Shown here piece by piece: positions 2,228 through 64,000 of a stretch of 64,000 nucleotides of DNA; within the stretch, counting starts at the first letter, position 1, and every line of letters starts with the position of its first letter. The stretch lies in the NCBI RefSeq assembly GCF_003018255.1, contig NZ_CP027440.1. The stretch is one strand, 5' to 3'. A model generated the notes under the pieces. The model did not search any database. It had not been told where the DNA came from and saw nothing but the letters and a program-made list of their open reading frames with translations. Position numbers and translations under genes: made by a program. Source of the stretch: Escherichia coli (GTDB taxonomy: Bacteria; Pseudomonadota; Gammaproteobacteria; Enterobacterales; Enterobacteriaceae).

Positions 2228-3742
2228 TCAGGCAACTGCCTGGCTGACTTTAGGCATCGCAAGGCTCAGTGCCTGACGCTCATCTGCCTGCTCGTGTAAC
2301 AATTCACCGGCGATTTCGCCTTCCCGCATCACCACAATCCGGTCGGCAACGCCGAGGACTTCAGGTAAGTCGCTGGAGGCAAACAGCACCGCCACACCCT
2401 GCGCCGCCAGCGCATAAATTACGTTATATATTTCGTGCTTAGCACCAACATCAATGCCGCGCGTAGGTTCATCCAGCAAAATGACCTTCATCTCTTCCGA
2501 TAACCAGCGGCCCAGAATGGCTTTTTGCTGATTTCCGCCTGAGAGATTCATGATCAGTTGATCAGCGCCCGGCGTTTTGATGTTGAGCGAACGAATGTGG
2601 TGATCGGCATTGTTTTCTTCCCAACCGTTGTTGATTACACAACCGCCGAGCACATGTGTACGTCTGGCACTGATGTTGATATTGTCGCGAACGGAGTGCA
2701 CGGGAATAATGCCTTCCGCTTTGCGATCTTCCGGGCAGAGCATCATGCCTGCGGCAATGGCGTGGCTCGGTTTACGAATATCGATCGGCTGTTGGTCGAT
2801 ATAAACCTGACCGGCGGTGATTTGCGTCCCGCCAAACATGCCTTTCATTAATTCGCTACGCCCTGCCCCGACCAGACCAAACAGACCGACAATTTCACCA
2901 CTGCGAACCGCCAGACTTATTGGCGTACGTACGCCTGGTGCTTTCACAGCATCAAGACGCAGCCGCTCCTCGCCATAACTACGCGGTTGCCAGCCGTAGA
3001 TATCGCCAATGTCTCGCCCGACCATCGCCTGCACCAGTGCGTCGTGGTCAACCTGCTGCATATCGGTAAAGGTTTTGACATAACGCCCATCTTTAAAGAC
3101 GGTGATGGCATCGCTGAGGGCAAATATTTCTTCCATACGGTGAGAAACGTATAAGATCACCCGCCCCTCTTTTCGCAGTTCACGAATAACGCGGAAAAGA
3201 TTGTCGATTTCGCGGGCAGAGAGGGAGCTGGTTGGCTCATCAAAGGCGATAATTTTGGCGTTACGCGCCAGCGCTTTGGCGATTTCAACCATCTGCCACT
3301 GACCAATGGAGAGATATTTCAGCGGCGTGTCCGGGTCAATATCCATACCAAGATGTTTAAGTTGTAAACCCGCCTCATAATTCAGCAATGAGCGATTCAC
3401 AATGCCGCCTTTATGCGGCAGCTGGCCGAGATAGATGTTTTCCGCGACGGTCATTTCCGGCACGAGATGCAGTTCCTGGTAAATAATCGCCACCCCCGCG
3501 TTAAGTGCTGCGGTCGTGTCGGAAAAGGACATTTCCTGCCCATTAATCACTACAGAACCCGTGGTTGGCGCATAGTTGCCGCTGAGGATTTTTAAGAGAG
3601 TTGATTTTCCTGCGCCATTTTCACCCATCAACGCATGAACCTGACCGGCATAGCAATCAAAACTAATATCCGTCAGCGCCTTAACGCCGGGAAACGTTTT
3701 ACCGATGCCGCGAAATGAGAGATACGGGGTAGACTGTTGCAT
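2228..3742 (-). CDS. araG: L-arabinose ABC transporter ATP-binding protein AraG
   Basis: ORF 2228..3787. Two ABC cassettes (Walker [10 protein letters not shown] and LSGGNQQK signature). Start trimmed to [17 protein letters not shown] (504 aa). Confidence 0.92.
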
Positions 3743-3811: not shown

Positions 3812-4801
3812 TTACTTACCGCCTAAACCTTTTTTCTCCAGTTCTTCTTTAAAGTTGTCACGCGTGATCAATACCACGTCGGTAACTTCGGTAAATTTTG
3901 GCGGTTCAACGTCTTTTGCTACCCAGTTGTAAAGCATTTCGCTGGATTTATAGCCATGTACGTCCGGGCTTGGCAGCAGGGAACCGTAGAAGCCGGTTGC
4001 CTGTGCCTTAGACAGTTCGCTCACCGCATCCACACCGTTAATACCGATACCGATGATATCGGCCGCTTTAAAGCCCTGACCTTCCGTCGCGCGTACGCCG
4101 CCAAGTACGGTGCTGTCGTTCATACCGACGATCAGCCAATGTTTAACTTCCGGATGTTGAACCAGCATTGAGTTGGCAGCGTCAAATGCCCCCGGGATGT
4201 CGTTAGATTTGGTAGGTACCTGATAAATTTGTTTTTCCGGGAATCCTGCAGCTTTCAGCGCATCCATAGACCCCGTAGTACGGCGACGAGCCGTATCCAG
4301 TTCGTTGGCGGTAATCGCCATCACCGCGCTTTCTTTGACATCCCAGCCACGTTTCTGCATCTCTTTATACAGTTCCTGGCCCTGACGTTCGCCAATTTTG
4401 GTCGCTGCCATCATCACCAGCGGAACGGTATCCATTGGCTTGCCTTTGGCGTTAACAAACTGGTCATCCACGGCAATGACTTTCATATCGTAGCCACGCG
4501 CTTTCGCCACGATGGCAGAGCCGAGTTTCGGGTCCGGAGTACAAATAACGAAACCTTTTGCGCCACTGGCAGCCAGGCTGTCGATCGCGTTCAATGTTTT
4601 TTCGCCATCCGGCACGGCAATCTTAATAACTTCAAACCCTAAATCCTTCCCAGCTTTATCGGCAAACTTCCATTCGGTCTGGAACCACGGCTCTTCCGGT
4701 TGCTTCACCAGGAAACCGAGCTTCAGGTTCTCCGCCATAGCGGATTGTGACATAACGGCTGCCAGACCAATGGCTGCCAGGGCTTTAGTAAATTTGTGCA
4801 T
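3812..4801 (-). CDS. araF: L-arabinose-binding periplasmic protein AraF
   Basis: ORF 3812..4852. Start trimmed to MHKFTKALAAIGLAAVMSQSAMA signal peptide followed by ENLKLGFLVKQPEEPWFQTEWKFADKAG. Confidence 0.92.
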   Translation of the reverse strand: MHKFTKALAAIGLAAVMSQSAMAENLKLGFLVKQPEEPWFQTEWKFADKAGKDLGFEVIKIAVPDGEKTLNAIDSLAASGAKGFVICTPDPKLGSAIVAKARGYDMKVIAVDDQFVNAKGKPMDTVPLVMMAATKIGERQGQELYKEMQKRGWDVKESAVMAITANELDTARRRTTGSMDALKAAGFPEKQIYQVPTKSNDIPGAFDAANSMLVQHPEVKHWLIVGMNDSTVLGGVRATEGQGFKAADIIGIGINGVDAVSELSKAQATGFYGSLLPSPDVHGYKSSEMLYNWVAKDVEPPKFTEVTDVVLITRDNFKEELEKKGLGGK

Positions 4802-5597
4802 GGTTCTCTCCAGCTTTAGTGTCGTTTTGTGTAGGGCAAAAACGAATGACATTCGTTAAATTAATCGGAAAACAAAGCATTACCTTTTAACTAAAAGATA
4901 AGTGACTGTGTTGACATAGTTTTAGCGAGAAATTAATTCTCCATAGGAGAGCAATATCACATCGCAGAATTACAGTGAGAACGTGCATAAATTTAGCGGG
5001 AAAAGACATAAGGGAAAGCCAATTTGTCAGACAAATTGTCGAATGCACAGCAGATTAATCCATAAGATTAGCCTGGAAATCCTTGTTGTCTTTGGTACCC
5101 ATGCGGGATGTCTTCTTTTTAACCAGTCAATAGGCCGCATTACCTGGCGTTGAGTTTTTGAAATGGTGTAATAACCACAACTCAAAGATGTGGAAAATGC
5201 GCGTCATTCATTTCGCCATTAATTATCACTGTGCTCATTAATTAACAGAACACGTATAATGAGAGCCATCTCGCAAAAATGAAAAAACGTTTTATAAAAT
5301 CATTGCTTCATCATGAATTCAAACCCACCTATTAATATCAACAAGATACAAAAAGCATCATCATTAAAATTCATTGCAGTTACATTGATTTCATCAATGA
5401 AATGTAAAAATATATAAACTTGATGATTTAAGCATTTTCTTATACCCGTTCAGACGTTATTCTTATTTCAGATCATCGTCAGAATTGACTCCACGATCAC
5501 ATTTCGGACCGGCAGAAAGGAATTATTCTGCAAACAGTAATTATGGTGTTTTGATTTATCTTGCACCTTTCCACTTCTGGATATAAGGATATTAGGT

Positions 5598-6101
5598 ATG
5601 GCAACCGCTGGAATGCTTCTCAAACTCAACTCTCAAATGAACCGCGAGTTTTACGCATCCAATCTCTACCTTCACCTGAGTAACTGGTGTTCTGAACAGA
5701 GTCTGAACGGCACCGCCACTTTCCTTCGCGCCCAGGCACAGAGTAATGTGACCCAAATGATGCGCATGTTTAACTTTATGAAGAGTGTCGGCGCTACCCC
5801 AATCGTTAAAGCCATTGATGTTCCCGGTGAAAAACTGAACTCTCTGGAAGAACTGTTCCAAAAAACGATGGAAGAATACGAGCAACGTTCAAGCACGCTG
5901 GCGCAGTTAGCCGATGAAGCGAAAGAACTGAATGATGATTCAACCGTCAATTTCCTGCGCGATCTGGAAAAAGAACAGCAGCATGATGGCCTGTTGCTGC
6001 AAACCATTCTTGATGAAGTGCGCAGTGCGAAACTTGCGGGTATGTGCCCTGTGCAGACCGACCAACATGTTCTGAATGTCGTGTCGCATCAGCTGCATTG
6101 A
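5598..6101 (+). CDS. ftnB: ferritin-like protein FtnB
   Basis: 167-aa [34 protein letters not shown]..., ferritin fold; paralog of ftnA located 1.3 kb downstream. Confidence 0.9.
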
Positions 6102-6145
6102 TCATACATCGGCGCTAATGCATTGCGCCGATGAAGTTTTTGAGA

Positions 6146-6182
6146 AACCGCTGCCTCATCTTTTTGAAGCAGCGGTTTTTTT
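6146..6182 (+). terminator. rho-independent terminator downstream of ftnB
   Basis: Stem aaccgctgc (6146-6154) pairs with gcagcggtt (6169-6177), followed by a T7 run. Confidence 0.6.
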
Positions 6183-6432
6183 AATGGGATTCGCCCTGTG
6201 GGGTAAACTTGAGTTCAATCAGCGCGATGGCTTTTTGGATTGCCCGCATGGTGACCGGGTCTGCGGCGGCGGGATGGTTAGTAAAGTCGATATTCTTCAG
6301 CTGGCTGGACATTTTTTCACGAACTTCAACGGGCGCGATTACATCGAGAACATCCAGAATTTGTTTGATAACCAACTGGCAAGCAACCACATCAGAAACC
6401 AGTTCCTGATCGGCATTCAGCGGCTGGGACAT
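6181..6432 (-). CDS. yecJ: DUF2766 family protein YecJ
   Basis: 83-aa [32 protein letters not shown]..., matching the K-12 yecJ position between ftnB and azuC. Confidence 0.85.
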
Positions 6433-6518
6433 CGTAAACTCCTGATAGCATTTTGAAAGCCGTTATAGTAGCGGCTTCACATCTTCAGCGATAGTCACAT
6501 CCACCGTCATCAGGACAC

Positions 6519-6546
6519 AAAAAAACCTGCCGGAGCAGGTTTTTTG
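6519..6546 (-). terminator. rho-independent terminator downstream of azuC
   Basis: Hairpin aacctgc-cgga-gcaggtt flanked by an A7 run (5' side) and a T5 run (3' side) on the plus strand, so it can terminate in either direction. Confidence 0.6.
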
Positions 6547-6633
6547 TTATCGGAACATATTGCCTGGCGGTACGTCTTTGAACGTCTTGCAATAGTTATT
6601 GAACATACTTTTCAGGATTTTGCGCAGTTTCAT
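6547..6633 (-). CDS. azuC: small membrane-associated protein AzuC (28 aa)
   Basis: Minus-strand ORF atgaaactgcgcaaaatcctg... translates to MKLRKILKSMFNNYCKTFKDVPPGNMFR*. It is absent from the supplied ORF track because it is shorter than the track's minimum length. Confidence 0.8.
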   Translation of the reverse strand: MKLRKILKSMFNNYCKTFKDVPPGNMFR

Positions 6634-6895
6634 CGCGGCACTCCAACCATTTGTTATACATGTGTTATTGTCTTTGCGCTTATAATATGACAACCATCAC
6701 AAAAATCAATCTTTATGTGATGTAAATCACATAAATACCCCTTTAATGTTATAAAAATGATAATCAAAAAGCAGCTACCCCATTTCTGACACCTACAGAT
6801 GGCGAGAAATAGCGCCTGCCAGGCGTCTTTTCCGGCCATTGTCGCAGCGCTGTAACGCGTAAAATAGTGCTTTCTTTTACTCTTCTGGCTGGACC

Positions 6896-7219
6896 ATGAG
6901 ACTTCTGATTCTGACTCTTTCATTAATAACGCTGGCGGGGTGTACGGTTACTCGCCAGGCCCATGTGAGCGAAGTTGACGCGGCAACAGGTATTGTACGG
7001 TTGGTTTATGACCAGGCTTTTTTGCAGCATGCCTATACCGATCGTTATGTCAGTCGCGGGATCGCCGATCGCGCATGCCAGCAGGAAGGCTATACCCACG
7101 CTATCCCCTTTGGTCAGCCAGTAGGCAACTGTAGCCTCTTTGCGGGTTCCTTATGTTTGAATACGGAATTCACTTTGTCATATCAGTGCCATCATTCCGC
7201 CTTCCCTGTCTTTCTCTAA
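6896..7219 (+). CDS. yecR: lipoprotein YecR
   Basis: 107-aa ORF with lipoprotein signal MRLLILTLSLITLAGC. Confidence 0.85.
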   Translation: MRLLILTLSLITLAGCTVTRQAHVSEVDAATGIVRLVYDQAFLQHAYTDRYVSRGIADRACQQEGYTHAIPFGQPVGNCSLFAGSLCLNTEFTLSYQCHHSAFPVFL

Positions 7220-7390
7220 ATGTTTTAATCAGCGAGGGGGATCTTCGCTGATTAAATAAATAGCGGTAATGCGTTTTATTCCCATTCGTATTTTTAATAA
7301 ATGAAGTTTATATTTTACCTTTTGCAAATAATAAAATAACAAATTATAGTGACGCCACAGCAACAAATATAACCTTTGTGGAGCACTATC

Positions 7391-7888
7391 ATGCTGAAAC
7401 CAGAAATGATTGAAAAACTTAATGAGCAGATGAACCTGGAACTGTACTCTTCACTGCTTTATCAGCAAATGAGCGCCTGGTGCAGCTATCATACCTTCGA
7501 AGGTGCTGCCGCGTTCCTGCGCCGTCACGCCCAGGAAGAGATGACGCATATGCAGCGTCTGTTTGATTATCTGACTGATACCGGCAACTTACCGCGTATT
7601 AATACCGTTGAATCTCCGTTTGCTGAATATTCCTCACTTGATGAATTATTCCAGGAAACCTATAAACACGAACAATTAATCACGCAGAAAATTAACGAAC
7701 TGGCTCATGCTGCAATGACCAATCAGGATTACCCAACATTTAATTTCCTGCAATGGTATGTTTCTGAGCAACATGAAGAAGAGAAACTGTTCAAATCGAT
7801 TATTGATAAATTAAGTCTGGCAGGCAAAAGCGGCGAAGGTTTGTATTTTATCGACAAAGAACTCTCTACCCTCGACACACAAAACTAA
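7391..7888 (+). CDS. ftnA: ferritin FtnA (iron storage)
   Basis: ORF 7376..7888; start trimmed to [31 protein letters not shown] (165 aa). Confidence 0.93.
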
Positions 7889-7925
7889 TGTTCTCCGGCG
7901 GCAGGTTTACTGCCGCCGTTTCAAA

Positions 7926-8165
7926 TCAGTGACGGCAAATCTTACTCTGATCGGTCGAAAAACCTTCTTCCGAAGGTATAAATTTGCCTTTTGCTGCCAG
8001 AAACGCCACCAACTCTCCCGCAGTCATCCCTTCTGCCGAGCAGGTGCGAAAACGTGCCTGTTCACCAAAACGCGCTTTAATTGCTGCTTCCAGACTGGCA
8101 TGCGTATATTGCTCGCCTGATTCAATCATCATATTTAACACTTCATGACCGTGAATAGAGTCCAT
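7926..8165 (-). CDS. yecH: YecH family protein
   Basis: 79-aa ORF MDSIHGHEVLNMMIESGEQYTHASLEAAIKARFG...; conserved position between ftnA and tyrP. Confidence 0.85.
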   Translation of the reverse strand: MDSIHGHEVLNMMIESGEQYTHASLEAAIKARFGEQARFRTCSAEGMTAGELVAFLAAKGKFIPSEEGFSTDQSKICRH

Positions 8166-8246
8166 CGTTCCTCCTCAAAAAAAGCCTAGCGTAGCGATTG
8201 CCGCTTATGAAGACTTTGCGCCAGCGCAGAACTGAACGCTTTTTAT

Positions 8247-8264
8247 TGTACATTTATATTTACA
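8247..8264 (+). promoter_or_regulatory. candidate TyrR box upstream of tyrP
   Basis: TGTACATTTATATTTACA fits the TGTAAA-N6-TTTACA TyrR box pattern, ~90 bp upstream of the tyrP start. Confidence 0.5.
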
Positions 8265-8355
8265 CCATATGTAACGCCGGTTTGACGAATCAGCCGTTAT
8301 GCCTTAACCTGCGCCGCAGATATCACTCATAAAGATCGTCAGGACAGAAGAAAGC

Positions 8356-9567
8356 GTGAAAAACAGAACTCTGGGAAGTGTTTTTATCGTGGCGGGAACC
8401 ACAATTGGCGCAGGCATGCTGGCAATGCCGCTGGCTGCGGCAGGTGTTGGTTTTAGCGTCACGTTAATCTTGTTGATTGGGCTTTGGGCGTTGATGTGCT
8501 ACACGGCGCTATTACTACTGGAGGTGTACCAGCATGTCCCGGCAGATACCGGTCTGGGCACGCTGGCAAAACGCTATCTAGGACGCTACGGTCAGTGGCT
8601 GACGGGCTTCAGTATGATGTTCTTAATGTATGCTCTGACTGCGGCATACATCAGCGGTGCCGGTGAATTGTTGGCCTCCAGCATCAGCGACTGGACAGGT
8701 ATTTCAATGTCGGCAACCGCTGGCGTGCTGTTGTTCACTTTTGTTGCCGGTGGCGTGGTTTGTGTCGGGACATCGCTGGTCGATTTATTTAACCGTTTTC
8801 TGTTCAGCGCCAAAATTATTTTTCTGGTGGTGATGCTGGTATTGCTGCTACCGCATATTCACAAAGTGAATCTTTTAACCCTGCCGTTGCAACAGGGACT
8901 GGCACTGTCTGCAATCCCGGTGATTTTTACGTCGTTTGGTTTTCACGGTAGCGTGCCGAGTATTGTCAGCTATATGGATGGCAACATTCGTAAGCTACGC
9001 TGGGTGTTTATAATCGGTAGTGCGATCCCCCTGGTGGCATATATTTTCTGGCAGCTGGCGACCCTTGGCAGCATTGATTCAACAACCTTTATGGGATTGC
9101 TGGCTAATCATGCCGGATTAAACGGGCTGTTACAGGCGTTACGCGAAATGGTGGCCTCTCCGCATGTTGAGCTGGCAGTGCATTTATTTGCTGATTTAGC
9201 CCTCGCCACGTCCTTCCTCGGCGTAGCGTTAGGCTTATTTGATTATCTGGCAGATTTGTTTCAGCGTTCAAATACCGTTGGTGGACGATTGCAAACTGGT
9301 GCAATTACCTTTCTGCCGCCACTGGCGTTTGCACTGTTTTATCCACGAGGATTTGTGATGGCGCTGGGTTACGCCGGTGTGGCGCTGGCGGTACTGGCAT
9401 TGATTATCCCTTCGCTGTTGACCTGGCAAAGCAGGAAGCACAATCCTCAGGCGGGTTACCGGGTGAAAGGTGGTCGTCCGGCGCTGGTGGTGGTGTTTCT
9501 CTGTGGTATTGCTGTGATTGGCGTGCAATTTTTGATTGCGGCAGGCTTGTTACCAGAAGTGGGGTGA
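8356..9567 (+). CDS. tyrP: tyrosine-specific transport protein TyrP
   Basis: 403-aa multi-pass membrane [36 protein letters not shown]... Confidence 0.93.
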
Positions 9568-14023: not shown

Positions 14024-14481
14024 AGGAATATCTCCAGAAATAGGGATAACGCTACTGATAGTTAGTCATTCGTATATTAGCGGTTTTTATTGCAACTTTG
14101 AAACGTTAAAAATGGTGGGTATTCGATTTTTCTCTCGTTTTTGTAAATTCGATTGTCCACAGTTATGGTCACGCCCGTCACCAACGGCTTCCGGGATCGT
14201 TTCACTGTAAGCCCTGCGATGAAATGTGACAAAAATTGACTTTATTCAGCAAAAATGAAAATCAGCCCGCTGAATATGTAACATTAATTAACCCGAACAA
14301 TACGGGCAAAAAACATTCATGATAAAAATATTTATTGGTCATTATATTAACGTATTTTATAGCACTGCCGATATCACGCTCAAAAAACAACCACTGCTAT
14401 TTTTAGCAAAGCTTATGGTATACTCCGCCGCCTTAACATTTTTCACCGCAAATTTTCATTGCAACATGACGAGGAAAATAA

Positions 14482-14706
14482 ATGAGTACGCCTGATTTTT
14501 CTACTGCCGAGAATAATCAAGAACTGGCAAATGAAGTCTCCTGCCTGAAAGCGATGCTGACGCTGATGCTGCAGGCGATGGGACAAGCTGACGCGGGCCG
14601 CGTGATGTTAAAGATGGAAAAACAGCTTGCGCTGATCGAAGACGAAACCCAGGCTGCAGTATTTTCCAAAACGGTTAAGCAAATTAAACAAGCCTACCGT
14701 CAGTAA
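14482..14706 (+). CDS. yecF: uncharacterised protein YecF
   Basis: 74-aa [42 protein letters not shown]... Confidence 0.8.
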
Positions 14707-51526: not shown

Positions 51527-52070
51527 GACTCAATCATTTTTTGAACAAATAGATAAATTTTGCGCAACGGCGGTGAATACAGGAAAATTCGATTTGAACG
51601 ATGTTATTTATCTTTGATTTCGGCTTTATTAATTCACTCAATCAATATATTGGCACTGATTACAATTATACCTTTTTATTTTTCTGTGTCATCATGCCTC
51701 CGTTATTAGCCTTTTATCGTCTTGTTTATATTTTTTTGGCCGGCATGATGCCGGCTTTTTTTATGCCTTCATTAATGTGCGCGAGATCACACCAGCCGTT
51801 TAGCACACAATCATTGATACTCCCTATCTTTTCGATCAACTCATAACATATTGATATACATCCATAATGTTCGTGAATATTTATATTCAGAATTCATAGC
51901 CACGAATTATATTAAATAGATTAGAAACATTTTGAAATCTTTTAAATACATTTGTTACATGTAATCTTTAAAATAAAATGAACTTCATAGAATAGTATCC
52001 AAATGTGCTTTTTTTGGATAACAGCACTTATTGATATATTCATGAAGATTATAATCACAAGGGAATACAT

Positions 52071-52172
52071 AATGAAAAGAAAAGTTCTGGCAATGCTGGT
52101 CCCGGCGTTATTAGTTGCTGGCGCAGCAAATGCGGCTGAAATTTATAATAAAAATGGGTTTTTTGTTGCCTG
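52071..52172 (+). pseudogene. yedS: 5' remnant of an OmpC-family porin gene (yedS-like), truncated after about 30 codons
   Basis: atgaaaagaaaagttctggcaatgctggtc... translates to [29 protein letters not shown] then FFVA-stop. This is the porin signal peptide plus mature N-terminus (AEIYNK[DN]G); homology ends where the prophage begins. Confidence 0.8.
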
Positions 52173-52244
52173 AAATTTATGCTCTTTAAAATCATGATGT
52201 TAGAAGCACTGTTTTTTAACGATGGCGACAAAATGGCGGCAGCG

Positions 52245-52463
52245 TCAAAGAGAGAGCGCCACCTGTCCTGATTTCATTGGATGCGGCTGAACCGGATTTG
52301 ACTCTTTTGGCGTTGCAATCGAACGAACAAAAGTTTCATGAGTAACAAAAGTATGGCTGCAGTTAATGTTCTGGCACTGGTTGTAACGCTCTTTGGTCAA
52401 TGAAGATACCTGAAAACTGCTGCGAGTATGGGCGGCACTTCCACACAGTGGGCAAATCATCAT
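52245..52463 (-). CDS. ogr: P2 Ogr-like zinc-finger late-gene transcription activator
   Basis: ORF 52245..52496; MICPLCGSAAHTRSSFQVSSLTKERYNQCQNINCSHTFVTHETF contains the CxxC...CxxxxC Ogr/Delta zinc finger. Confidence 0.85.
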   Translation of the reverse strand: MMICPLCGSAAHTRSSFQVSSLTKERYNQCQNINCSHTFVTHETFVRSIATPKESNPVQPHPMKSGQVALSL

Positions 52464-52553
52464 TTTTCGAGTTCTCCCCATTTTTGCTAAATTCACAATA
52501 ATGATACCGCATTATTCCATTTTGAAAACTTAAAAGTTCTCCATTGCGAAGAA

Positions 52554-53654
52554 TCATTCCATTTCGAAATCATCAATCTTCACTTCAAGCTCCAGACTGG
52601 TCGTAAAACCGTTATCCGGGCTGACAGTATGCGTCAGGGTGGTAATAGTCCATTCCGCATCATCTATCGGCTGTTTAAAGCCACTGACTTTCACTGGCAT
52701 TTCCGTGTAGAGATCTGCCCGCCCTTCCGCCAGTTGTAGCGAGAATGACGCAACGCCGCGTTGCAGGCGTTCCCACTGCATTTTCGCCGCTCGTTCGGCG
52801 TTGCTCCGGTTGGCATAAGTGCGATTAAGTACCAGCACGTTTTCATCCGTACCCACCAGGTAATCGCCCTGCTTCGCTTCCGGCTCTTTCTTCTGCTTCT
52901 TAGTTCTGCGCTTACGCTTCACCGTGGTGCTTTCTTTCTTCGCGGGTTCGCGGGTATGCAACCAGCTGGCAATTACGCCCGTGTAAGCTCCGCGATCTGC
53001 CAGGGTAAAGCGGTGACTGTCGCCGTCCTTACGTGTGATAGTGATAACCGGTAGTGGTTTACCACTGGCGCTTTTACCCTGCCCCTGCCTGATGAATAAC
53101 AGATTGCCATTTTTCACCGACGCAATAGCACCGTACTGGCGCGCCAGCCGCATCAGAAAACTGCCGTCACTCTCATTGGTCTGGTCTATATGTTCCACGG
53201 GTTTATCTGACAGGTCTTTACCCAATGCCATCTTCAGTTTGTGCCGCGCAGCTATTTCCTTCACCACTTCCCCAACGGTGGTCTTGTGCCACGACTTTTC
53301 ACGGCGGGTATTCAGTGTTTCACGAAAATCAGCACTTCGCGCCCGGATAGTCAGGCGGTCCGGTGCGCCAGTGTGTTCAATCTCGTCCACTGTGAATGCC
53401 CCTTTCGGGAAAAGCGGCTGCCCCTTCCAGCCTAGCGCCAGCGTAATGACCGCACCACGGCGCGGCAGCGCTATTTTTCCATCGGCGTCATCCAGGTCCA
53501 GATCAAGCTGGTCCGCTTCAAAGCCCCGGTTATCCGTCAGCGTCAGACTCATCAGGCGGTTATCCAGCACAGTGGTGATATCCCTGCCCTCAATACTGAT
53601 ACTGAATGCCGGAGTTTTGTTGCCTTTGTTAAGCAGTTCAGAGCTGAAATTCAC
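52554..53654 (-). CDS. P2 gpD-like tail protein (late control gene D)
   Basis: 366-aa ORF MNFSSELLNKGNKTPAFSISIEGRDITTVLDNRLMSLTLTDNRGFEADQLDLDLDDADG..., gpD family; position between ogr and U. Confidence 0.85.
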   Translation of the reverse strand: MNFSSELLNKGNKTPAFSISIEGRDITTVLDNRLMSLTLTDNRGFEADQLDLDLDDADGKIALPRRGAVITLALGWKGQPLFPKGAFTVDEIEHTGAPDRLTIRARSADFRETLNTRREKSWHKTTVGEVVKEIAARHKLKMALGKDLSDKPVEHIDQTNESDGSFLMRLARQYGAIASVKNGNLLFIRQGQGKSASGKPLPVITITRKDGDSHRFTLADRGAYTGVIASWLHTREPAKKESTTVKRKRRTKKQKKEPEAKQGDYLVGTDENVLVLNRTYANRSNAERAAKMQWERLQRGVASFSLQLAEGRADLYTEMPVKVSGFKQPIDDAEWTITTLTHTVSPDNGFTTSLELEVKIDDFEME

Positions 53655-54136
53655 GACAGAAGCCCTCCCACCGTTTTACTGATATCGCTTAAGGCAGATG
53701 TTGCCGTTCCCTGCAGATTATTCAGCTGCGCACTGAGATCACCGAACATATCGGACAGGGATTCATCCACCCGTTTGAGCGACAGGGTGAACTCAATCCG
53801 GCGCGGCATACCGTTGCGGAAAAACTCCGTTTTAGTCTGATTCAGTCCCTCAATCACATACATGCCGTAAATCGTGCCGCTGCCTTCAATCAGAGGCCAT
53901 GCTTTCCCCTGTTCTGCCATCTGCTCAAGTGCCAGCAACGACAGCCTGCCGCCTGTTATCTCCGGCATAAGAACACCGGAAAGCGTCAGCATGTCGTTGT
54001 CTGGTCCCAGAAACTGCGTGGACGGACGACGATTTACCCGGCTGTTAACCGCATGTCGCCAGCTGCGTTGATACTGCAGTTCCTGATACGGCACGGTGCG
54101 CAGCATAAACACGTACAATCCCAGCACCATCATCAT
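53651..54136 (-). CDS. P2 gpU-like tail protein
   Basis: 161-aa ORF; position between D and the tape-measure gene; 4-bp overlaps on both sides. Confidence 0.8.
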   Translation of the reverse strand: MMMVLGLYVFMLRTVPYQELQYQRSWRHAVNSRVNRRPSTQFLGPDNDMLTLSGVLMPEITGGRLSLLALEQMAEQGKAWPLIEGSGTIYGMYVIEGLNQTKTEFFRNGMPRRIEFTLSLKRVDESLSDMFGDLSAQLNNLQGTATSALSDISKTVGGLLS

Positions 54137-57100
54137 GCGTCGTATCCCCCCTGATCGCTGTAGTTACTCCTGGCTTTTGCCTTCAGCCTGCGTTCACGTT
54201 CATCAAGCTGGCGTGCCACCTCCCGCGCAATATCCTGCGCACTTTGTCCTGGCTGCGTCTGAATGATGATCTGCGTCGGTGCCTCAATCCGTTGAACGAG
54301 CGGCACAGTGGCTGCGCGACTCACAATTGCTTCTCCACCTTTCGCGGGAAGTGCCAAAGGGTGCAACGGTGGAAGCTCTGCTGGCGCGGCAGCAACGCCC
54401 ATCATTCCGGCAACAACGGCAGCCAGTGCAGCTGTATTTCTCCGGCTGGTCACATTTGCCGGGCCGTTAACAATTTCCGGCCCGTTTTCACCGACGATGC
54501 CAAACTGCCCGCGCGGGATATACCCGCCGCTGTCATACATCCCCGCAAAGCCATATCCCCATGATGGAAAACCACCCGATGGCATCATCACTTTACCGTC
54601 TGCATTCACCGTCGCAGGTTGCTGACGCGTCACGCTTTCCGGCAGTTTTGCCTTTGCGGCCTCTTTACTGACAATGCCGAGCTTCTCCAGCAACCAGGAA
54701 ACGCCGGATTTCAGGGAGTCCAGCGGATGCATGACCATATTCAGCCCTTCCACCAGTGCCTCCCCGAATCGCCGCCCCATTGCCGCTGCGCTCTGCAGTT
54801 CGGCAGAGGTCGACTTAACGGGCGTCAGCAGATCAGTAAACCAGCCCCACAGCGCCTGCACTTTGTCGCCAATCCACTGGAACACGGGCTTAAGCGGTTC
54901 GAACGCTGCACTGATGGGACCTGCCGCCGCTTTGAATCCTTCCACCACGCCACCGAGAAATGCGGTGATGGGTTGCCAGTATTTCCAGACAACCAGCGCC
55001 ACGCCCGCCAGTGCAGTAACCACAAGACCTATCGGACTGAGCAGAGCACCTAACAGACCAGATATGGCATACAGGGCAACGCGCAGCATCGCCAGTGGAC
55101 CAGATGCCAGTACTCGCAGCACCGTGCCTGCGGCGGCCAGTCCACCGCGCAGTACCGACAGAGGATTCATAAACATCACAGCAACAGCACGTAAACCGGA
55201 TAATCCAGACCGCAAAAGTGCAACCGGCGCACCTGCTACAGTTTTCAGGACATTTCCCGTCAGTGATGCCGTGCGGCGCAAAGACGACAACGGCGCAGTA
55301 AGTAAACCTGCGGCGTTGCCCGATGAAGCAAGCCCGCGTCGCAGCAGTGCCAGTGGTGCGCCAGCCAGCCAGGACAACGCGCTGCTGGTTCGAGTTACTG
55401 CTGCCGTAACGAAAGATAACGTTTTGATACCCAGCACAGAGAATCCCAGACGGATCACTGCCAGCGGCCCCAGCACTGCAGCCAGCGCCACCGCTAAGGT
55501 GCCGAGGCCGACGGTAACCGCAGCCACAACAGCCGATGCTTTCATCAGTGTGCCTGTCAGTTCCGGGTTAGCTTCCACCCAGCGACGCAACGCCCCCGTG
55601 ACGCTTTTCACCGTGTACAGAATATCCATCAGCGGCTGGCGCAGCGTTTCGCCCAGGCTGCTGAAGGTGTTCTGCGCTCCGGTTTTGACCAGCAACCACT
55701 GCGCAGAAAGTGAATCCTTGTTAATGTCGGATTCTTTCTGCATGGAGCCGAGCGCATCATTGCCCGCTGTCAGTTTTAACTGACGCTGCAGTTCCGGCAG
55801 GTTGTTTGCCAGTTTCGCCGCGTCATCGCCAAACTCTTTACCAAACAACATAGTCATGGCAGACAGGCGCTTGTCCTGCGGCAGCGCGTTTACCTTCTCC
55901 AGCACGCGCTGGATGGTTCCCATCGCATCCTTCGTCATCTGCTTTTCAATCACTTCAGGATTGAGTTTCAGCAAATTCATCCCTTCAAAGAAACTTTTGC
56001 TTTGCATGGTGGCAATGGACAATTCACGCACCATCGCGTTTGCTGCACTGGCTGCAACCTCTGGCGCAGCGCCCAGTGTCAGGAAGGTGGAACCCAGCGC
56101 CGCCGCTTTACGATAATCCAGACGGTCAGCCACACCGCCCAGACGTTGCATCACATCAATGATGTCTGCCCCTTTCGACATGGCGTTATCATCCAGATAG
56201 TTCAGCGCATCACCGAGCTGTTCAATATTGCGGGTGGGGATTTTGTAGAGCTGGGCGATTTTCCCCAGACTTTCTGACAGTTCATCCGCTGGCAGCTCAA
56301 AGGCTGTTGCCGCCTTTGCTGCCGTACTGGCGAAGGCCAGCAGGTCACGTTTCTGATCTTCCCAACTGTCGTCAGGGTTTGCGACGTTCATGCGCGCACC
56401 ACCTTCAACCAGTGCAGCGAAATCCACCGCACCGTTTTCCATCGGCAACTGTTCGCTGGCAGCCTTGATGGCATCCTGCATTTCATAAAAACGTGCAGTG
56501 CGGTTGCCATTATCGTCACGCAGACCATTGACCTGCTTTGCCACACCTTTCATGGCATCTTCCATGCTGGTATAGCTTTTTACTGCCGCCATCACTGGTG
56601 CGCCCATTGCCAGCCCTGCAGCCGTGGTGGTGGCTCCGGCACCTGCAATACGATCACGCACCTCCAGCGAACGGGCATAACTGGCACGCGCTGCATTCAT
56701 CCTGCGCTGAGCTTCCCCCAGTCGCTTCAGCCGCGCCTCCTGTTTCGAAAGTTCCTGGTTATAACGTGATGTTTCACGGGCTAAACGGGCAGTTGCTCCC
56801 GCATCGTCTTTCGCAGAAATTCCCGCCCGGTACAGTTCAGCACGCACAAGCGCCGTCTGCTGCTGCAGCTTTTTCTGGCGTTCTTCCAGGCGCTGAACAG
56901 CCAGCCGTTGACGGCCCAGAGCAACAACCTGACGTTGCGAAGGCGGCCCCATCGCTCCCAGTTCCTGACTGAGCAAATTTGCACGCTGGCGGGCATAGTT
57001 CAGCCTGTCGCCTAATTTCTGATTTTCTGCCTGCAGCTTTCGGAAGCTGTCCAGACTGCTCCCGGCCTGATCAAGCTGCTTTATTGCATCGCGGGATTTT

Positions 57101-57210
57101 TTGACAGCAGCAGCCAGTTCTCTTGAACTGGCCTGCGCAGATCGAAATGGGCGGGTGAGCTTGTCAACCGCATTAAGAATGACCTGCAGACGCAGGTTGT
57201 TATCACTCAT
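54133..57210 (-). CDS. tail tape-measure protein (P2 gpT-like)
   Basis: 1025-aa ORF with Ala/Leu-rich coiled-coil N-terminal half and Gly/Ala-rich segments, typical of tape-measure proteins. Confidence 0.88.
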   Translation of the reverse strand: MSDNNLRLQVILNAVDKLTRPFRSAQASSRELAAAVKKSRDAIKQLDQAGSSLDSFRKLQAENQKLGDRLNYARQRANLLSQELGAMGPPSQRQVVALGRQRLAVQRLEERQKKLQQQTALVRAELYRAGISAKDDAGATARLARETSRYNQELSKQEARLKRLGEAQRRMNAARASYARSLEVRDRIAGAGATTTAAGLAMGAPVMAAVKSYTSMEDAMKGVAKQVNGLRDDNGNRTARFYEMQDAIKAASEQLPMENGAVDFAALVEGGARMNVANPDDSWEDQKRDLLAFASTAAKAATAFELPADELSESLGKIAQLYKIPTRNIEQLGDALNYLDDNAMSKGADIIDVMQRLGGVADRLDYRKAAALGSTFLTLGAAPEVAASAANAMVRELSIATMQSKSFFEGMNLLKLNPEVIEKQMTKDAMGTIQRVLEKVNALPQDKRLSAMTMLFGKEFGDDAAKLANNLPELQRQLKLTAGNDALGSMQKESDINKDSLSAQWLLVKTGAQNTFSSLGETLRQPLMDILYTVKSVTGALRRWVEANPELTGTLMKASAVVAAVTVGLGTLAVALAAVLGPLAVIRLGFSVLGIKTLSFVTAAVTRTSSALSWLAGAPLALLRRGLASSGNAAGLLTAPLSSLRRTASLTGNVLKTVAGAPVALLRSGLSGLRAVAVMFMNPLSVLRGGLAAAGTVLRVLASGPLAMLRVALYAISGLLGALLSPIGLVVTALAGVALVVWKYWQPITAFLGGVVEGFKAAAGPISAAFEPLKPVFQWIGDKVQALWGWFTDLLTPVKSTSAELQSAAAMGRRFGEALVEGLNMVMHPLDSLKSGVSWLLEKLGIVSKEAAKAKLPESVTRQQPATVNADGKVMMPSGGFPSWGYGFAGMYDSGGYIPRGQFGIVGENGPEIVNGPANVTSRRNTAALAAVVAGMMGVAAAPAELPPLHPLALPAKGGEAIVSRAATVPLVQRIEAPTQIIIQTQPGQSAQDIAREVARQLDERERRLKAKARSNYSDQGGYDA

Positions 57211-57336
57211 CGTTGGCCCCGCTTCTCTGAATCGCTTTATACCGCCATTCCAGCACTTCGGTCAGCGGCATAACGTCAGTAACGGATGGCGGCCAGTGAA
57301 AAATGGTGGCGATATCTGCCACCAGATCGTCAACCG

Positions 57337-57639
57337 TCAGGCTGTCGGTAAACCGGCAAGCACCGACTTCTTCAACAAAAAAGTGACAACCTCAACCGAC
57401 ATGGCAGTGAGATCTGCCGGGTCCATCTCTGCAATTTCCTGTGCAGTCAGTGCCGGACTGGAGATGCGGGGGATCACGATCATCATCGCGTTTACATCCA
57501 TATCCATAATGGCCTGCAGGCGTGTACCGCGCAGCGCACCGGACTGCGGTTTACGCAGCACAATTTCGGTGATTTCTGTTTTACCGCGCTTGATGGGGGT
57601 ATCCAGTTGAATGGTCTTTTCAGTCTGCTTATCGCTCAT
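57337..57639 (-). CDS. P2 gpE-like tail assembly chaperone (0-frame product; E+E' made by -1 frameshift extends to about 57203)
   Basis: 100-aa ORF MSDKQTEKTIQLDTPIKRGKTEITEIVLRKPQSGALRGTRLQAIMDMD...; a slippery site lies near its 3' end. Confidence 0.8.
   Translation of the reverse strand: MSDKQTEKTIQLDTPIKRGKTEITEIVLRKPQSGALRGTRLQAIMDMDVNAMMIVIPRISSPALTAQEIAEMDPADLTAMSVEVVTFLLKKSVLAGLPTA
57376..57382 (-). promoter_or_regulatory. programmed -1 ribosomal frameshift slippery heptamer T-TTT-TTG (E to E+E')
   Basis: Minus strand reads ACT TTT TTG in the E frame. The -1 frame stays open for about 59 further codons, stopping at TGA overlapping the first codons of the tape-measure gene. Confidence 0.7.
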
Positions 57640-57693
57640 TTTGCTGTCCTGTCAATTGGGTTCTGGCGCGGTATCCCGCGCCGTTCAGATATA

Positions 57694-58209
57694 TCAGAGG
57701 CCGAGGGCGTTGCGGTGCGCTTCCATCAGGTCCACACCGTCCACAATTTCCACCATGTTGATAAGGTCCACTTCATAGAGCACCTCACCATTGATGGTCA
57801 GCTTCGCGTAGCTGTTGGTACTGGTCACTTTGGTGGTGTTGCTTTCGCCCGTCTTCCACTCGCCGGAATCCACTTCTTTGTGACGTCCACGCACGACAAG
57901 CTCCACAGCCTGCACTTCCCCGGTATCGTCACGCTGAATAGAGCCGGTAAAGCGCAGCTGGATGCCATCCACCGTGGCTTTACCCATCTGTTTAAACAGC
58001 AGCAATTCAGTACCACCAATGGAAAATTCTGTGTCCAGCGCACTGTCATCAAGCCCCAGATCCACATCCACCGCACCCGGCATTCCGCCGCCGCGATACT
58101 TCTCATATTTGCGGGTGAATTTCGGCAGCGTCAGCGACTCAACGATCCCCTGCCAGTTGTTCCCGTCGTTAAACAGGTTCAGGTGTTTTAATTTGCGTGG
58201 TAAAGCCAT
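57694..58209 (-). CDS. tail tube protein (P2 FII-like)
   Basis: 171-aa ORF MALPRKLKHLNLFNDGNNWQGIVESLTLPKFTRKYEKYRGGGMPGAVDVDLGLDDSALD. Confidence 0.88.
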   Translation of the reverse strand: MALPRKLKHLNLFNDGNNWQGIVESLTLPKFTRKYEKYRGGGMPGAVDVDLGLDDSALDTEFSIGGTELLLFKQMGKATVDGIQLRFTGSIQRDDTGEVQAVELVVRGRHKEVDSGEWKTGESNTTKVTSTNSYAKLTINGEVLYEVDLINMVEIVDGVDLMEAHRNALGL

Positions 58210-58218
58210 GTTGTCCCC

Positions 58219-59391
58219 TTACGCGCTGACCTGGCTGGCGAAATTCACCAGGTACTGATCGGTGATGCGCTGACGCAGCATCAGGTTTTCAAGTGGCGGC
58301 ACTGGCGTGTAGTCGTAGTCGATGGTGAGTTTTCCGGCTTTCAGCGTGTCTTTGTCGTTCACCGACTCATCCAGCCAGCAATCACCACCAATGAGATAGC
58401 CCTGACTGACCAGGCTGCGCATTTTGGCGCGGATACCTTCGATAATGTCGCGGGCCAGCGACGGGTTAAGCGGTTTATCCACCGCCCACATGTGTGCTTC
58501 TGCCATCGTGTCCATCAGCACCTGCGCCGTGCGGGTGTAGTTTTCGAAGGCAAAGAGCGGGTCATCACTCAGGCAGCGGGAACCCCAGAAGCGGAAACCG
58601 TCTTTACGCACAAGCGTGGTGACGTCGTTCTGGTTCAGCAGACCTGCATCGGTTGCCGGGTCCTGCAGATCCCAGAACACATCTGCAGAAATTCCGGTGA
58701 CACCGTTCACGCCCACGTTGGACAGGCTTTTGTGCCATCCGGTCTGCTCGTCAATTTTGGCGCGCAGACCAAGCGCACGGGCGGTGGCATATGCCGTTGC
58801 TTCGGCATTCAGCACCGTGTCCCAGCCAGTAAAGTCAGGCCAGATCAGCATCCCTTCGCGCTGGCTGAAGTTTTCGCGGTAAGTGATCGCCTCCTGCACT
58901 GTCTTGCAGCCATACGCTGACAGGTAAGCAAATCCACGCAGGCTTTGCGCCACGCTCAGCAACTCAGTAGCTACCGCCTTGGTGTCGTGGCCTGGCACGC
59001 CGAGAATGCGCGGTTTAACGCCGAGCTGTGACTGGGCAGATAACAGGGCTTTCATACCTGTTTTTTTACCTTCAGCAGTCACTGCGCCGATGATATTGGT
59101 CGTGGTTTCGTCTTCCGTTTCACCCTGCGGCACACGCACAACAATGGTCACGGGTTTTGCCTGGTCAGCGATGGCATCCAGCGAACGGGCCAGAGTACCG
59201 GACTCACCCGCTTTACCGCTGGCAGTCAGCACATCAGTGATCAGCACGGGTTTATTAAGAGGAAACATTTTTGCATCGGCATCATCGCCCGTGCAGACCA
59301 TACCCACGATGGCGGTGCTCACCGTGGTAATAGATCGGGTGCCTTCGTTGACTTCAACAACGCGCACCCCGTGGTGGTAATCCTGAGCCAT
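58219..59391 (-). CDS. contractile tail sheath protein (P2 FI-like)
   Basis: 390-aa [56 protein letters not shown]. Confidence 0.9.
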
Positions 59392-59533
59392 AGTGGCGAA
59401 CCTCCTGATTGGATTAGGCTTCGCCCTATGTTGAAGTGATTGTGCCTGACAAACAGCTAAGCGCAGTTGTGTCGTTATTCACACAAAATAACGGTATTTG
59501 TCTGCTTGCAGGGATAATCAACATAATGCTGAT

Positions 59534-60100
59534 TCAGGGGGATTCATTGATCTTATTTGCCGGAAATTTTCTATAAATGGTAGAAACGCCTACATCAAAA
59601 ATCAGTGCAATACGCTGTCTTGATTCTCCGGCCTCGAGTAAACGCCCAATCTGTGCCCACTGTTCGGTGGTCAACTTAGGACGGCGTCCACCTACTCTGC
59701 CTTTGGCACGAGCTGCAGCCAGCCCTGCCCTGGTACGTTCAACTATCAGTTCGCGTTCCATTTCAGCCAGGGCACCCATGACATGAAAAAAGAAACGGCC
59801 CATTGGGGTACTGGTATCAATACTGTCAGTCAGGCTTCTGAAATTCACACCACGCTGGCGCAACTCTTCTATCAGCGTAACAAGATGCCGCATACTGCGC
59901 CCCAACCTGTCCAGCTTCCAGACAACCAGCGTGTCTCCTGCCGATAGTGTCCTGAGTAGTTTTTTCAGCCCCGGTCTGTCGGACTTAGTGCCACTGATTT
60001 TGTCCTCAAAAATCCGCTCACATCCCGCGCAGTTCAGTGCATTACGTTGCAAATCGGTGTTCTGGTCATTTGTTGACACGCGTACATAGCCAATAAGCAT
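59534..60100 (-). CDS. pin: serine-recombinase DNA invertase (Pin/Gin/Cin/Hin family)
   Basis: ORF 59534..60106; MLIGYVRVSTNDQNTDLQRNAL... with catalytic Ser in the YVRVST motif and C-terminal HTH (GVSTIYRKF); very close to e14 Pin. Confidence 0.9.
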   Translation of the reverse strand: MLIGYVRVSTNDQNTDLQRNALNCAGCERIFEDKISGTKSDRPGLKKLLRTLSAGDTLVVWKLDRLGRSMRHLVTLIEELRQRGVNFRSLTDSIDTSTPMGRFFFHVMGALAEMERELIVERTRAGLAAARAKGRVGGRRPKLTTEQWAQIGRLLEAGESRQRIALIFDVGVSTIYRKFPANKINESP

Positions 60101-60155
60101 GATCATCCCCCTGAATAAAAACCGGAGATGATGCCAGTTAGCTGTTACCTCTGCA

Positions 60156-60181
60156 TTTTCTTAAACGTTGGTTTGGGAGAA
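60156..60181. repeat. invertase crossover site, left (pix/gix/cix-like)
   Basis: ttttcttaaacgttggtttgggagaa; inverted repeat of the site at 62124..62149. Confidence 0.75.
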
Positions 60182-60664
60182 GGTTCAGCATTACCTGTTG
60201 GTGCGCCTGTTCCGTGGCCTTCAGAGACACCTCCAACAGGCTGGCTGAAATGCAACGGGGCGGCTTTTTCTGCTGAAGAATACCCGGAACTGGCAAAGGC
60301 TTACCCGACAAATAAATTGCCTGATTTACGAGGTGAATTTATTCGTGGCTGGGATGATGAACGTGGTGTGGATAGTGGGCGAACTCTGCTTTCAGCGCAA
60401 GGAGATGCTATTCGAAACATTACTGGCGGTTTTGGTCAGTTGCGCGTAAACAGCGAAATTAATGCAATTGTCGATGTTCAAAGTGTGAGTGGGGCTTTTT
60501 ACGGAGGTACCTCAGTCCGGAATAACATCAATGTGTCTATGACATACGCTAATGACCGAAAAATCCGACAAGATGTTCACTTCTCGGCGGCAAATGTTGT
60601 TCCAACAGCAAATGAAAATCGTCCACGTAACATCGCCTTTAATTATATTGTGAGGGCCGCATGA
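60156..60664 (+). CDS. alternative tail-fibre C-terminal segment (Sv'-like), silent in this orientation and lacking its own start
   Basis: The frame is open through the crossover site (..LGE-GSALPVGAPVPWPSETPPTGWLKCNGAAFSAEEYPELAKAYPTNKLPDLRGEFIRGWDDERG...), so inversion would fuse it to the H constant part at the conserved GLGE junction. The track's ATG at 60128 is probably not a real start. Confidence 0.7.
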
Positions 60665-61265
60665 TGAATAAAGCTGTATTAAATAGCAAACTCATTGCCA
60701 TAAAAGCGGGAGACATTATCATTTATAATTATGATGGTGAAACGCGGGAATATATTTCTACATCAACTGAATATCTCGCTGTCGGCGTCGGTATCCGGCA
60801 TGTTCTTGTTTGGATGCACCAGGTACACATAAAGCTGGTTATGCAATTTGTCGTTCTGTAGATTTAAACTCATGGGAATATGTGCCAGACCATCGCGGTG
60901 AAGTTGTCTATAACACCGAAACGGGAGAATCAAAAGAAATCACAGCTCCGGGTGATTACCCTGAAAATACAACCACTATCGCCCCATTAACGCCATACGA
61001 TAAATGGGATGGCGAGAAATGGGTGACGGATACCGAGGCACAGCATAGCGCCGCAGTAGATGCAGCGGAAGCACAGCGCCAGTCGCTGATTGATACTGCA
61101 ATGGCTTCCATCAGTCTGATTCAACTGAAATTGCATGCCGGACGTAAACTGACGCAGGCAGAAACAACCCGGCTTAACGCTGTGCTGGATTACATTGACA
61201 CGGTGACGGCAACAGATACCAGCACCGCGCCGGATGTCATCTGGCCTGAACTACCGGAGGCGTAG
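60661..61265 (+). pseudogene. tail-fibre assembly protein gene (Tfa', partner of Sv') with an apparent 1-bp frameshift
   Basis: N-terminal part in frame 1 (60661..60861, MMNKAVLNSKLIAIKAGDIIIYNYDGETREYISTSTEYLAVGVGI) and C-terminal part in another frame (60810..61265, ...DAPGTHKAGYAICRSV...TDTSTAPDVIWPELPEA). The frames join if one C is added in ggtatc-cggca around 60795. Confidence 0.6.
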
Positions 61266-61680
61266 GCCATTCAATATCTGGAGCACTGGAGGTATCAACC
61301 AGTTCCAGTGCGTCCAGATAATCCAGCCATAAATTATATTGTTCCAGTTCGTCACCTTTCAGACGACCAATAGCAGCTTTGCCAGGCCACTGATGGGTGT
61401 TGATGTAGGTATTGGCTTCTGAAACCAAAGATATTTTTTTCATTTCAGCCATCAACACCTCATCCTCTTTTGAAGGCGGTGGGGAATTAATCCATATTGG
61501 CCGTCCTGAACTGTCAGCGCCAATTTCTTTCCCTTCTGGATGCAGCCCAAGAAATTGCTCATATCTTTCTCTGGTAATTTCAATAACATCATCAGGAAGC
61601 GTTCCCGCATCCTCATATTCTGGAAACAATTCTTGCAGATAAAAACTTTTACTTCCGGGTGAAAAGAATACTGAGTTCAT
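61237..61680 (-). CDS. tail-fibre assembly protein (Tfa / P2 gpG-like), active orientation
   Basis: 147-aa ORF directly downstream of H; C-terminus ...DTSSAPDIEWPTPPVVQAR resembles the Tfa family C-terminal motif. Confidence 0.8.
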   Translation of the reverse strand: MNSVFFSPGSKSFYLQELFPEYEDAGTLPDDVIEITRERYEQFLGLHPEGKEIGADSSGRPIWINSPPPSKEDEVLMAEMKKISLVSEANTYINTHQWPGKAAIGRLKGDELEQYNLWLDYLDALELVDTSSAPDIEWPTPPVVQAR

Positions 61681-61682
61681 TC

Positions 61683-63787: not shown

Positions 63788-64000
63788 CCGTTCCTCCGTT
63801 GGTTACGCTCCACTGCGTACATGATGCCGCCTGTGTTTTGTTCAGGACCACATCCGCCAGCGGAGAAGCCAGTTCCACACGTTGAACACCCTCAACATGC
63901 AGAGCAGCAAAGATGGCGCTACGGCGAATATCCCGACCAAGCCTCGTCTGGCTGGCAATGTACTTCTGCAGACTGGCTTTTGCCGCTGCCATTACCGGCT
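63780..64000 (-). CDS. baseplate assembly protein (P2 gpJ-like), C-terminal part only (5' end beyond window)
   Basis: ORF fragment ...LQKYIASQTRLGRDIRRSAIFAALHVEGVQRVELASPLADVVLNKTQAASCTQWSVTNGGTDE; overlaps the gpI start. Confidence 0.75.
   Translation of the reverse strand, partial: PVMAAAKASLQKYIASQTRLGRDIRRSAIFAALHVEGVQRVELASPLADVVLNKTQAASCTQWSVTNGGTDE

Follow-up and report, generated by a model that had tools for sequence, protein, structure and literature searches.

Does a 28-codon open reading frame that is missing from a six-frame ORF track represent a real gene, and are further genes of this size hidden in its neighbourhood? We addressed this question in a stretch of 64,000 nucleotides from Escherichia coli (assembly GCF_003018255.1, contig NZ_CP027440.1), which is referred to as the window throughout. 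Based on the nucleotide sequence, an initial annotation had placed the small protein gene azuC, together with a terminator hairpin of its own, at positions 6519..6633. It had further proposed that other genes of less than 60 amino acids might be hidden in two long AT-rich intergenic regions (4853..5597 and 51527..52070).

Identity of the 28-codon reading frame

The minus strand of the window reads ATG AAA CTG ... CGA TAA from 6633 to 6547, and its translation is exactly the one given by the initial annotation. The coding sequence comprises 87 nt including the stop codon (28 codons plus TAA) and is thus intact as claimed. If the frame is extended mechanically to TTG 6693, the first such codon following the preceding stop, the ORF reaches 48 amino acids. 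Its absence from the six-frame track is explained by the 60-amino-acid default of the ORF tool, as had been suggested.

At the nucleotide level, the coding sequence is 100% identical to b4663 of E. coli K-12 (K-12 1987873..1987959). The intergenic gap between yecJ and yecR, in which it is located, has a length of 463 nt and differs from the gap in K-12 MG1655 by 12 substitutions and 0 indels, with 0 changes in the CDS. This gap was matched in 5419/5426 complete E. coli genomes, and the matched feature is annotated as "azuC: stress response protein AzuC". The K-12 annotation lists two features at this locus, namely the CDS azuC b4663 and the ncRNA azuR b4434 (1987843..1988001), which correspond to 6547..6633 and 6517..6675 of the window. 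In addition, the gene order araF-ftnB-yecJ-azuC-yecR-ftnA-yecH-tyrP, with azuC on the same strand as yecJ, is common to the window, strain 104 and K-12. The peptide passes the NCBIfam equivalog NF033642 "stress_AzuC" with 75.9 bits at a cut-off of 30 (E = 1.3e-21); a search of Pfam gave no family for it.

Altogether, K-12 identity, synteny and the NCBIfam equivalog agree with the Shine-Dalgarno sequence, terminator and purifying selection described below, and the original naming of the frame as azuC holds. We put the probability that the feature is E. coli azuC, carried on the dual-function RNA AzuCR (IsrB/IS092), at about 0.97; no result spoke against it. Its identity, anatomy, conservation and coding signature were established in this analysis; translation, GlpD binding, sRNA targets and regulators are drawn from the literature. 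As a discovery the gene carries little weight, being already known in detail: the report of azuC dates from 2008, that of its regulation from 2010 and that of its dual function from 2022.

Transcript, promoter and terminator

The elements of the locus are arranged on the minus strand as follows, in the direction of transcription:

6716..6731 (-), distal CRP-type palindrome TGTGATTTACATCACA, a perfect TGTGA-N6-TCACA centred at -48.5, upstream of the -35 (direct reading)
6682..6709 (-), sigma-70 promoter with TTGATT (6709..6704), 16 nt and TATTAT (6687..6682) (promoter scan)
6686..6701 (-), proximal CRP-like site TGTGATGGTTGTCATA, TGTGA-N6-TCATA, overlapping the -35/-10 spacer and the -10 (direct reading)
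6512..6675 (-), AzuCR (IsrB/IS092) transcript of 164 nt (K-12 start mapped via the indel-free alignment; RefSeq azuR b4434 maps to 6517..6675)
6644..6641 (-), Shine-Dalgarno sequence GGAG, 7 nt before ATG 6633 (direct reading and SD scan)
6547..6633 (-), azuC coding sequence, product MKLRKILKSMFNNYCKTFKDVPPGNMFR
6545..6519 (-), intrinsic terminator AAAAAACCUGC-UCCG-GCAGGUUUUUUU, directly after the stop codon (fold)

For the window strain, the transcript ends were placed by homology to K-12, where the 164-nt AzuCR RNA starts at 1988001 (Raina 2022, Fig. 1 legend; PMC8915982), corresponding to window position 6675. The promoter was found independently by the scan; its TATTAT ends 7 nt before this published start, and it is near-invariant in an alignment of 60 sequences. 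Both the GGAG and the ATG at 6633 are located downstream of the transcription start, and the SD scan scored the former at -5.9 kcal/mol with a 6-nt spacing. The interval 6519..6633 proposed initially covers the coding sequence and the terminator but omits the 42-nt 5' leader and the promoter (6634..6731).

Across species and genera, the half-sites of the distal CRP palindrome are conserved and its spacer is free to vary. Likewise, TGTGA and TCATA of the proximal site are conserved across species, and from the consensus we infer that 6686..6701 is a further, putative CRP site. Two CRP-type sites at this promoter fit the published repression of azuCR by CRP, for which predicted CRP sites were also reported (PMC8915982). 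More recently, operators of FNR, PhoP and NarP were described at K-12 1988039-1988076, equivalent to window 6713..6750, with the reported FNR site mapping to 6713..6732 (PMC12266141, 2025).

The terminator hairpin (AAAAAACCUGC-UCCG-GCAGGUUUUUU, 6545..6520) consists of a 5-bp GC core, CCUGC/GCAGG, extended by A-U pairs and closed by a UCCG loop, and is followed by seven U, the last of them at 6519. With a folding energy of -16 kcal/mol (z = -4.9), it was more stable than all shuffled versions (0/200 shuffles as stable), which substantiates the claim that azuC has a terminator of its own at 6519..6545. It stands 115 nt upstream of yecJ. It went undetected in a consensus terminator scan, apparently owing to pairing between the A-tract and the U-run. 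The fold of the whole AzuCR RNA is unremarkable in its stability (z = -1.2), as expected of a translated leader plus ORF. Searching 4000..9000 against Rfam with E <= 1 gave no family at threshold; the only matches, STnc370 and rsmX, were terminator-driven and below the gathering score. These matches are uninformative, and the missing Rfam match says nothing further on AzuCR/IsrB membership.

Conservation and coding signature of azuC

Next, we analyzed the distribution of azuC in 80 loci, one per species, which were anchored on yecJ instead of azuC so that absence of the gene could be detected. An intact azuC frame of 27-29 codons was found in 58/80 loci, 65-122 nt upstream of yecJ. These belong to Escherichia, part of Citrobacter, Enterobacter, Lelliottia, Leclercia, Kosakonia, Silvania, Huaxiibacter, Pseudescherichia, Pseudenterobacter and Pseudocitrobacter. 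Frames of 28 codons occur in Escherichia and in one Citrobacter amalonaticus, and frames of 29 codons in Pseudocitrobacter; all others have 27. An SD-like purine motif precedes the start codon by 5-9 nt in all 58 intact loci (GGAG in 57, GGGG in 1), and a terminator hairpin follows the frame in 58/58, with variation in the loop and at some stem positions. The gene is absent where synteny upstream of yecJ is broken, namely in Salmonella, Buttiauxella and the other Citrobacter loci (including C. braakii, C. youngae, C. werkmanii, C. portucalensis, C. gillenii and C. koseri). In Escherichia sp. MOD1-EC7003, azuC and yecR were apparently deleted, with a degraded remnant of the azuC terminator left upstream of yecJ (locus L004, ~2380..2430).

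The start codon is ATG in 51 of the 58 loci and GTG in the remaining 7, all of the latter from species of Enterobacter and Lelliottia (L022, L035-L037, L042, L045 and L046). The same seven loci, together with L039, which kept its ATG, have a diverged leader at the site of pairing with the sRNA FnrS, reading AAAGUUGUAUAAC instead of AACACCUGCAUAAC. This suggests, from the leader and start codons, that the control of AzuC translation may differ in the GTG-start Enterobacter/Lelliottia clade.

A 28-codon ORF by itself is within chance: the surrounding 4.5 kb contains 74 ORFs of at least 20 amino acids, and the yecJ-yecR gap holds 24 starts of ORFs with 10 or more codons. We therefore compared codon positions among 54 distinct azuC coding sequences. 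Third positions are variable in 26/27 codons, compared to 10/27 for first and 11/27 for second positions. The pN/pS ratio is 0.16 in the annotated frame. For the remaining sense frames it is 3.5 and 1.0, and for the antisense mirror frame 2.17. None of the 54 sequences carries a stop in the annotated frame, whereas 41-52 of them do in the other two sense frames. Together, ATG, SD, promoter, terminator and cross-species coding signature exceed chance. Judged by this codon pattern, the azuC ORF is a real protein-coding gene under purifying selection. The initial annotation had named an SD and conservation in related genomes as the points on which its reading depended, and both were found.

Competing readings of the frame

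The RNA could in principle be solely a non-coding sRNA, IsrB, with the 28-codon frame being a chance ORF that has experienced no selection at the protein level. It was indeed first described as the sRNA candidate IS092/IsrB (PMC8915982), and short ORFs are plentiful by chance around azuC. A chance frame is, however, at odds with the low in-frame pN/pS, with variation at nearly every third position, with the stops that interrupt the two other sense frames of most sequences and not this one, and with the purine motif kept at every intact locus. Furthermore, translation in K-12 is supported by the published detection of an SPA-tagged protein and by ribosome binding (PMC8915982). We therefore give almost no credence to a purely non-coding RNA.

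The true product could also be one of two longer frames of 48 amino acids each, both listed as mechanical ORFs: the extension of the azuC frame from TTG 6693 (MSYYKRKDNN...MKLRK...) or an antisense frame at 6544..6690 (+), whose mirror position is stop-free in 53/54 sequences. The start of the former lies within the promoter spacer and precedes position 6675, to which the start of transcription was mapped, and 36/58 species have in-frame stops within 60 nt upstream of the azuC start codon. As for the antisense frame, its pN/pS exceeds 2, as given above, and the sequence scored as its 'SD' belongs to the terminator stem. On the grounds of start position, upstream stops and pN/pS, both frames were rejected, and we consider them practically untenable as the true product.

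Properties of the AzuC peptide

The AzuC peptide is strongly basic, with a net charge of +6. Among 59 sequences, residues I6, L7, Y14, C15, T17-G24, M26 and F27 are invariant. Residues 1-20 are amphipathic with a hydrophobic moment of 0.53, a value matched by 1.3% of shuffles. Previous work located AzuC at the inner membrane (PMC8915982), and an I6L7-to-EE mutant is published to lose membrane localisation; the computed amphipathicity and the invariance of I6 and L7 agree with the published amphipathic helix and with this mutant. AzuC was also found to co-purify with GlpD and to raise glycerol-3-phosphate dehydrogenase activity (PMC8915982). The evidence for K-12 comprises the SPA tag and ribosome binding for translation, and co-purification and enzyme assays for GlpD (PMC8915982).

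Dual function of the AzuCR RNA

The initial annotation had treated azuC as a plain small-protein gene. The protein gene stands, but what had been overlooked is that the 164-nt transcript carrying it doubles as AzuR/IsrB, an sRNA that acts by base pairing. In K-12, the AzuR RNA represses cadA and galE by base pairing via sequence inside the azuC CDS, and translation and base pairing of AzuCR interfere mutually (PMC8915982). [quoted passage not shown] Since the azuC CDS of the window is identical to that of K-12, the bases validated for pairing with cadA and galE are necessarily present. We mapped the following pairing regions:

6562..6605 (-), predicted AzuR-cadA pairing region inside the azuC CDS, AzuCR nt 71-114 (windowed duplex scan)
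6658..6664 (-), FnrS pairing site, AzuCR nt 12-18 (position defined in PMC8915982)

The windowed duplex scan predicted pairing of AzuCR nt 71-114 with cadA from -15 to +25, covering its RBS and start codon, at -21 to -24 kcal/mol. This predicted site is consistent with the published placing of the pairing region within the CDS (PMC8915982). For galE, the same scan gave ambiguous sites. Duplexes of the whole-length AzuCR with cadA and galE were discarded as unrealistic 100-nt duplexes. Because third codon positions vary across genera, the base-pairing function of AzuR need not be conserved outside Escherichia.

Based on these data, the locus most probably operates in the window strain as follows. 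Transcription from the sigma-70 promoter with its two CRP-type sites would yield the ~164-nt RNA and stop at the intrinsic terminator. Ribosomes would initiate at the GGAG-led AUG and produce the 28-residue, strongly basic and amphipathic AzuC, which would activate GlpD. The same RNA, via its coding-region sequence, would pair with the cadA and galE mRNAs and cause their repression, and translation and base pairing would be in competition. At the level of transcription, azuCR would be repressed by CRP and additionally by FNR, NarP and PhoP according to the 2025 study (PMC12266141). Finally, pairing of the FnrS sRNA with the 5' leader would repress AzuC translation.

A rare variant in the FnrS pairing site

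Compared to AzuCR of K-12, the window has an identical CDS, -35 and -10 hexamers, SD core, terminator and flanking genes. It differs by two substitutions in the spacer of the distal CRP palindrome and by two in the 5' leader, namely C to A at 6661 and C to U just before the GGAG. The first leader substitution falls on AzuCR nt 15, in the middle of the 7-bp FnrS seed that was validated by experiment. Here, the window reads CACAUGU, K-12 CACCUGU and most other genera CACCUGC. The exact 32-nt leader stretch with the A occurs in 68/5426 complete E. coli genomes, the K-12 version in 4827.

The duplex predicted for the 5'-end seed of FnrS is weakened from -11.5 kcal/mol in K-12 to -4.9 kcal/mol with the variant. 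A second, discontinuous FnrS duplex over the SD and AUG was predicted in both strains (-11.4 and -13.9 kcal/mol), and owing to this alternative the net effect of the C to A change on FnrS control is uncertain. The substitution also creates an out-of-frame AUG at 6661, which opens a 21-codon frame (6661..6596) that overlaps azuC and has no SD. Judging from these predictions, the FnrS step may not operate in the window strain as published. If the change matters, the anaerobic restraint that FnrS places on AzuC synthesis would be lost or rewired in this lineage, a speculative and rather doubtful proposition. The rare FnrS-site variant represents a minor lead on natural variation in sRNA-on-sRNA regulation.

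Comparison with known dual-function RNAs

In its organization, AzuCR resembles SgrS/SgrT of E. coli, where likewise one RNA pairs with mRNAs and encodes a small protein for carbon metabolism (PMC8915982). The base-pairing region of SgrS, however, is separate from its coding region, and a single pathway is the target of both arms, whereas in AzuCR the two regions overlap and compete, and the pathways are partly different (PMC8915982). SgrS/SgrT has no sequence relationship to AzuCR.

Spot 42/SpfP and the Vibrio system VcdRP/VcdP are also dual-function RNAs of carbon metabolism that encode peptides of 15-29 amino acids (PMC8916003, PMC8672173). Spot 42 is CRP-repressed, as is AzuCR, and VcdP, like AzuC, activates an enzyme (PMC8915982). 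Both systems differ from AzuCR in their unrelated sequences, their targets (CRP protein, citrate synthase) and their genomic contexts.

Other small genes and the two AT-rich gaps

As a next step, we investigated whether the window contains further genes below the 60-amino-acid filter, as the initial annotation had proposed. Two features outside the azuC locus are relevant here:

14319..14495 (+), yecU, 58 amino acids, between uvrY and yecF and overlapping the yecF start; intact and identical to K-12 YecU
51673..51762 (+), rseX sRNA gene, Rfam RF01401 with 92.5 bits at a gathering score of 50; same position in K-12

In the K-12 stretch matching the window, yecU is the sole other annotated CDS of less than 60 amino acids; YecU was reported by VanOrsdel et al. 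2018 (PMC6001520). The general expectation of other small genes in the window was thus borne out by yecU, but neither of the two regions named for them contributed one.

The first of these regions is part of the araF-ftnB gap, the true extent of which is 4802..5597, with araF starting at 4801 as in K-12. The second is flanked by drpB and by the 5' end of yedS, a porin gene. At first sight, both offer room for unannotated small-protein genes: they are long (796 and about 625 nt), have a GC content of 30-40% and hold 47 (araF-ftnB) and 30 (drpB-yedS) ORF starts of at least 10 codons, and azuC and yecU prove that such small genes occur in the window. The scan for SD-led short ORFs suggested by the initial annotation was run on the intergenic regions. 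Within the gaps it covered frames of at least 10 codons, which were filtered for an SD. It recovered the SD of azuC and revealed no conserved SD-led ORF in either gap. Across both, the SD filter was passed by one ORF only, which has 13 codons, starts with TTG (5024..5065) and is intact in 1/25 aligned species, and K-12 RefSeq lists no CDS in either gap. Ribosome-profiling catalogues were compared indirectly via this current K-12 annotation; the preprint text of Weaver 2019 names none of the flanking genes. SD scan and ORF alignment accordingly left 4853..5597 with no hidden gene of less than 60 amino acids that combines a usable SD with conservation; the araF-ftnB gap as a whole contains no ORF with excess third-position variation. 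Within 51527..52070, no SD-led ORF was found, and the gap is occupied by rseX. We therefore regard further unannotated small-protein genes in the two gaps as highly improbable.

In this respect, azuC can be taken as a positive control: this real gene of 28 codons is invisible to a 60-amino-acid ORF filter but was cleanly recovered by three tests jointly, namely start codon with SD, terminator, and the pattern of variation at codon positions across species. Both AT-rich gaps are rejected by these tests, which point to rseX there and to yecU elsewhere in the window.

Conserved non-coding DNA upstream of araF

Two sub-blocks of the araF-ftnB gap are conserved beyond Escherichia, one adjoining araF (4802..5087) and one adjoining ftnB (~5394..5540). 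Upstream of araF, a non-coding block (4917..5087; 170-286 nt) retains 72-80% identity out to Citrobacter, Kosakonia and Pseudocitrobacter, and contains a near-invariant core of ~39 nt at 4922..4960. The best preserved frame of the gap, a 12-codon GTG frame at 4960..4922, was rejected as coding, the block being invariant at all three codon positions. By its substitution pattern, the 4922..4960 block is of the kind seen in protein-binding DNA rather than in coding sequence. The conserved block next to araF is presumably the araFGH promoter/operator region.

A P2-like prophage in yedS

Besides these elements, the window contains a P2-like prophage (~52158..64000), which is inserted ~85 nt into the yedS porin gene starting at 52072. 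It carries an ogr zinc-finger gene (52245..52496) and late control gene D (52554..53654), followed by tail genes. The prophage region shares 96% identity with P2-like phages of E. coli and Klebsiella, and the prophage-yedS junction is shared over its full length by 1/5426 complete E. coli genomes.
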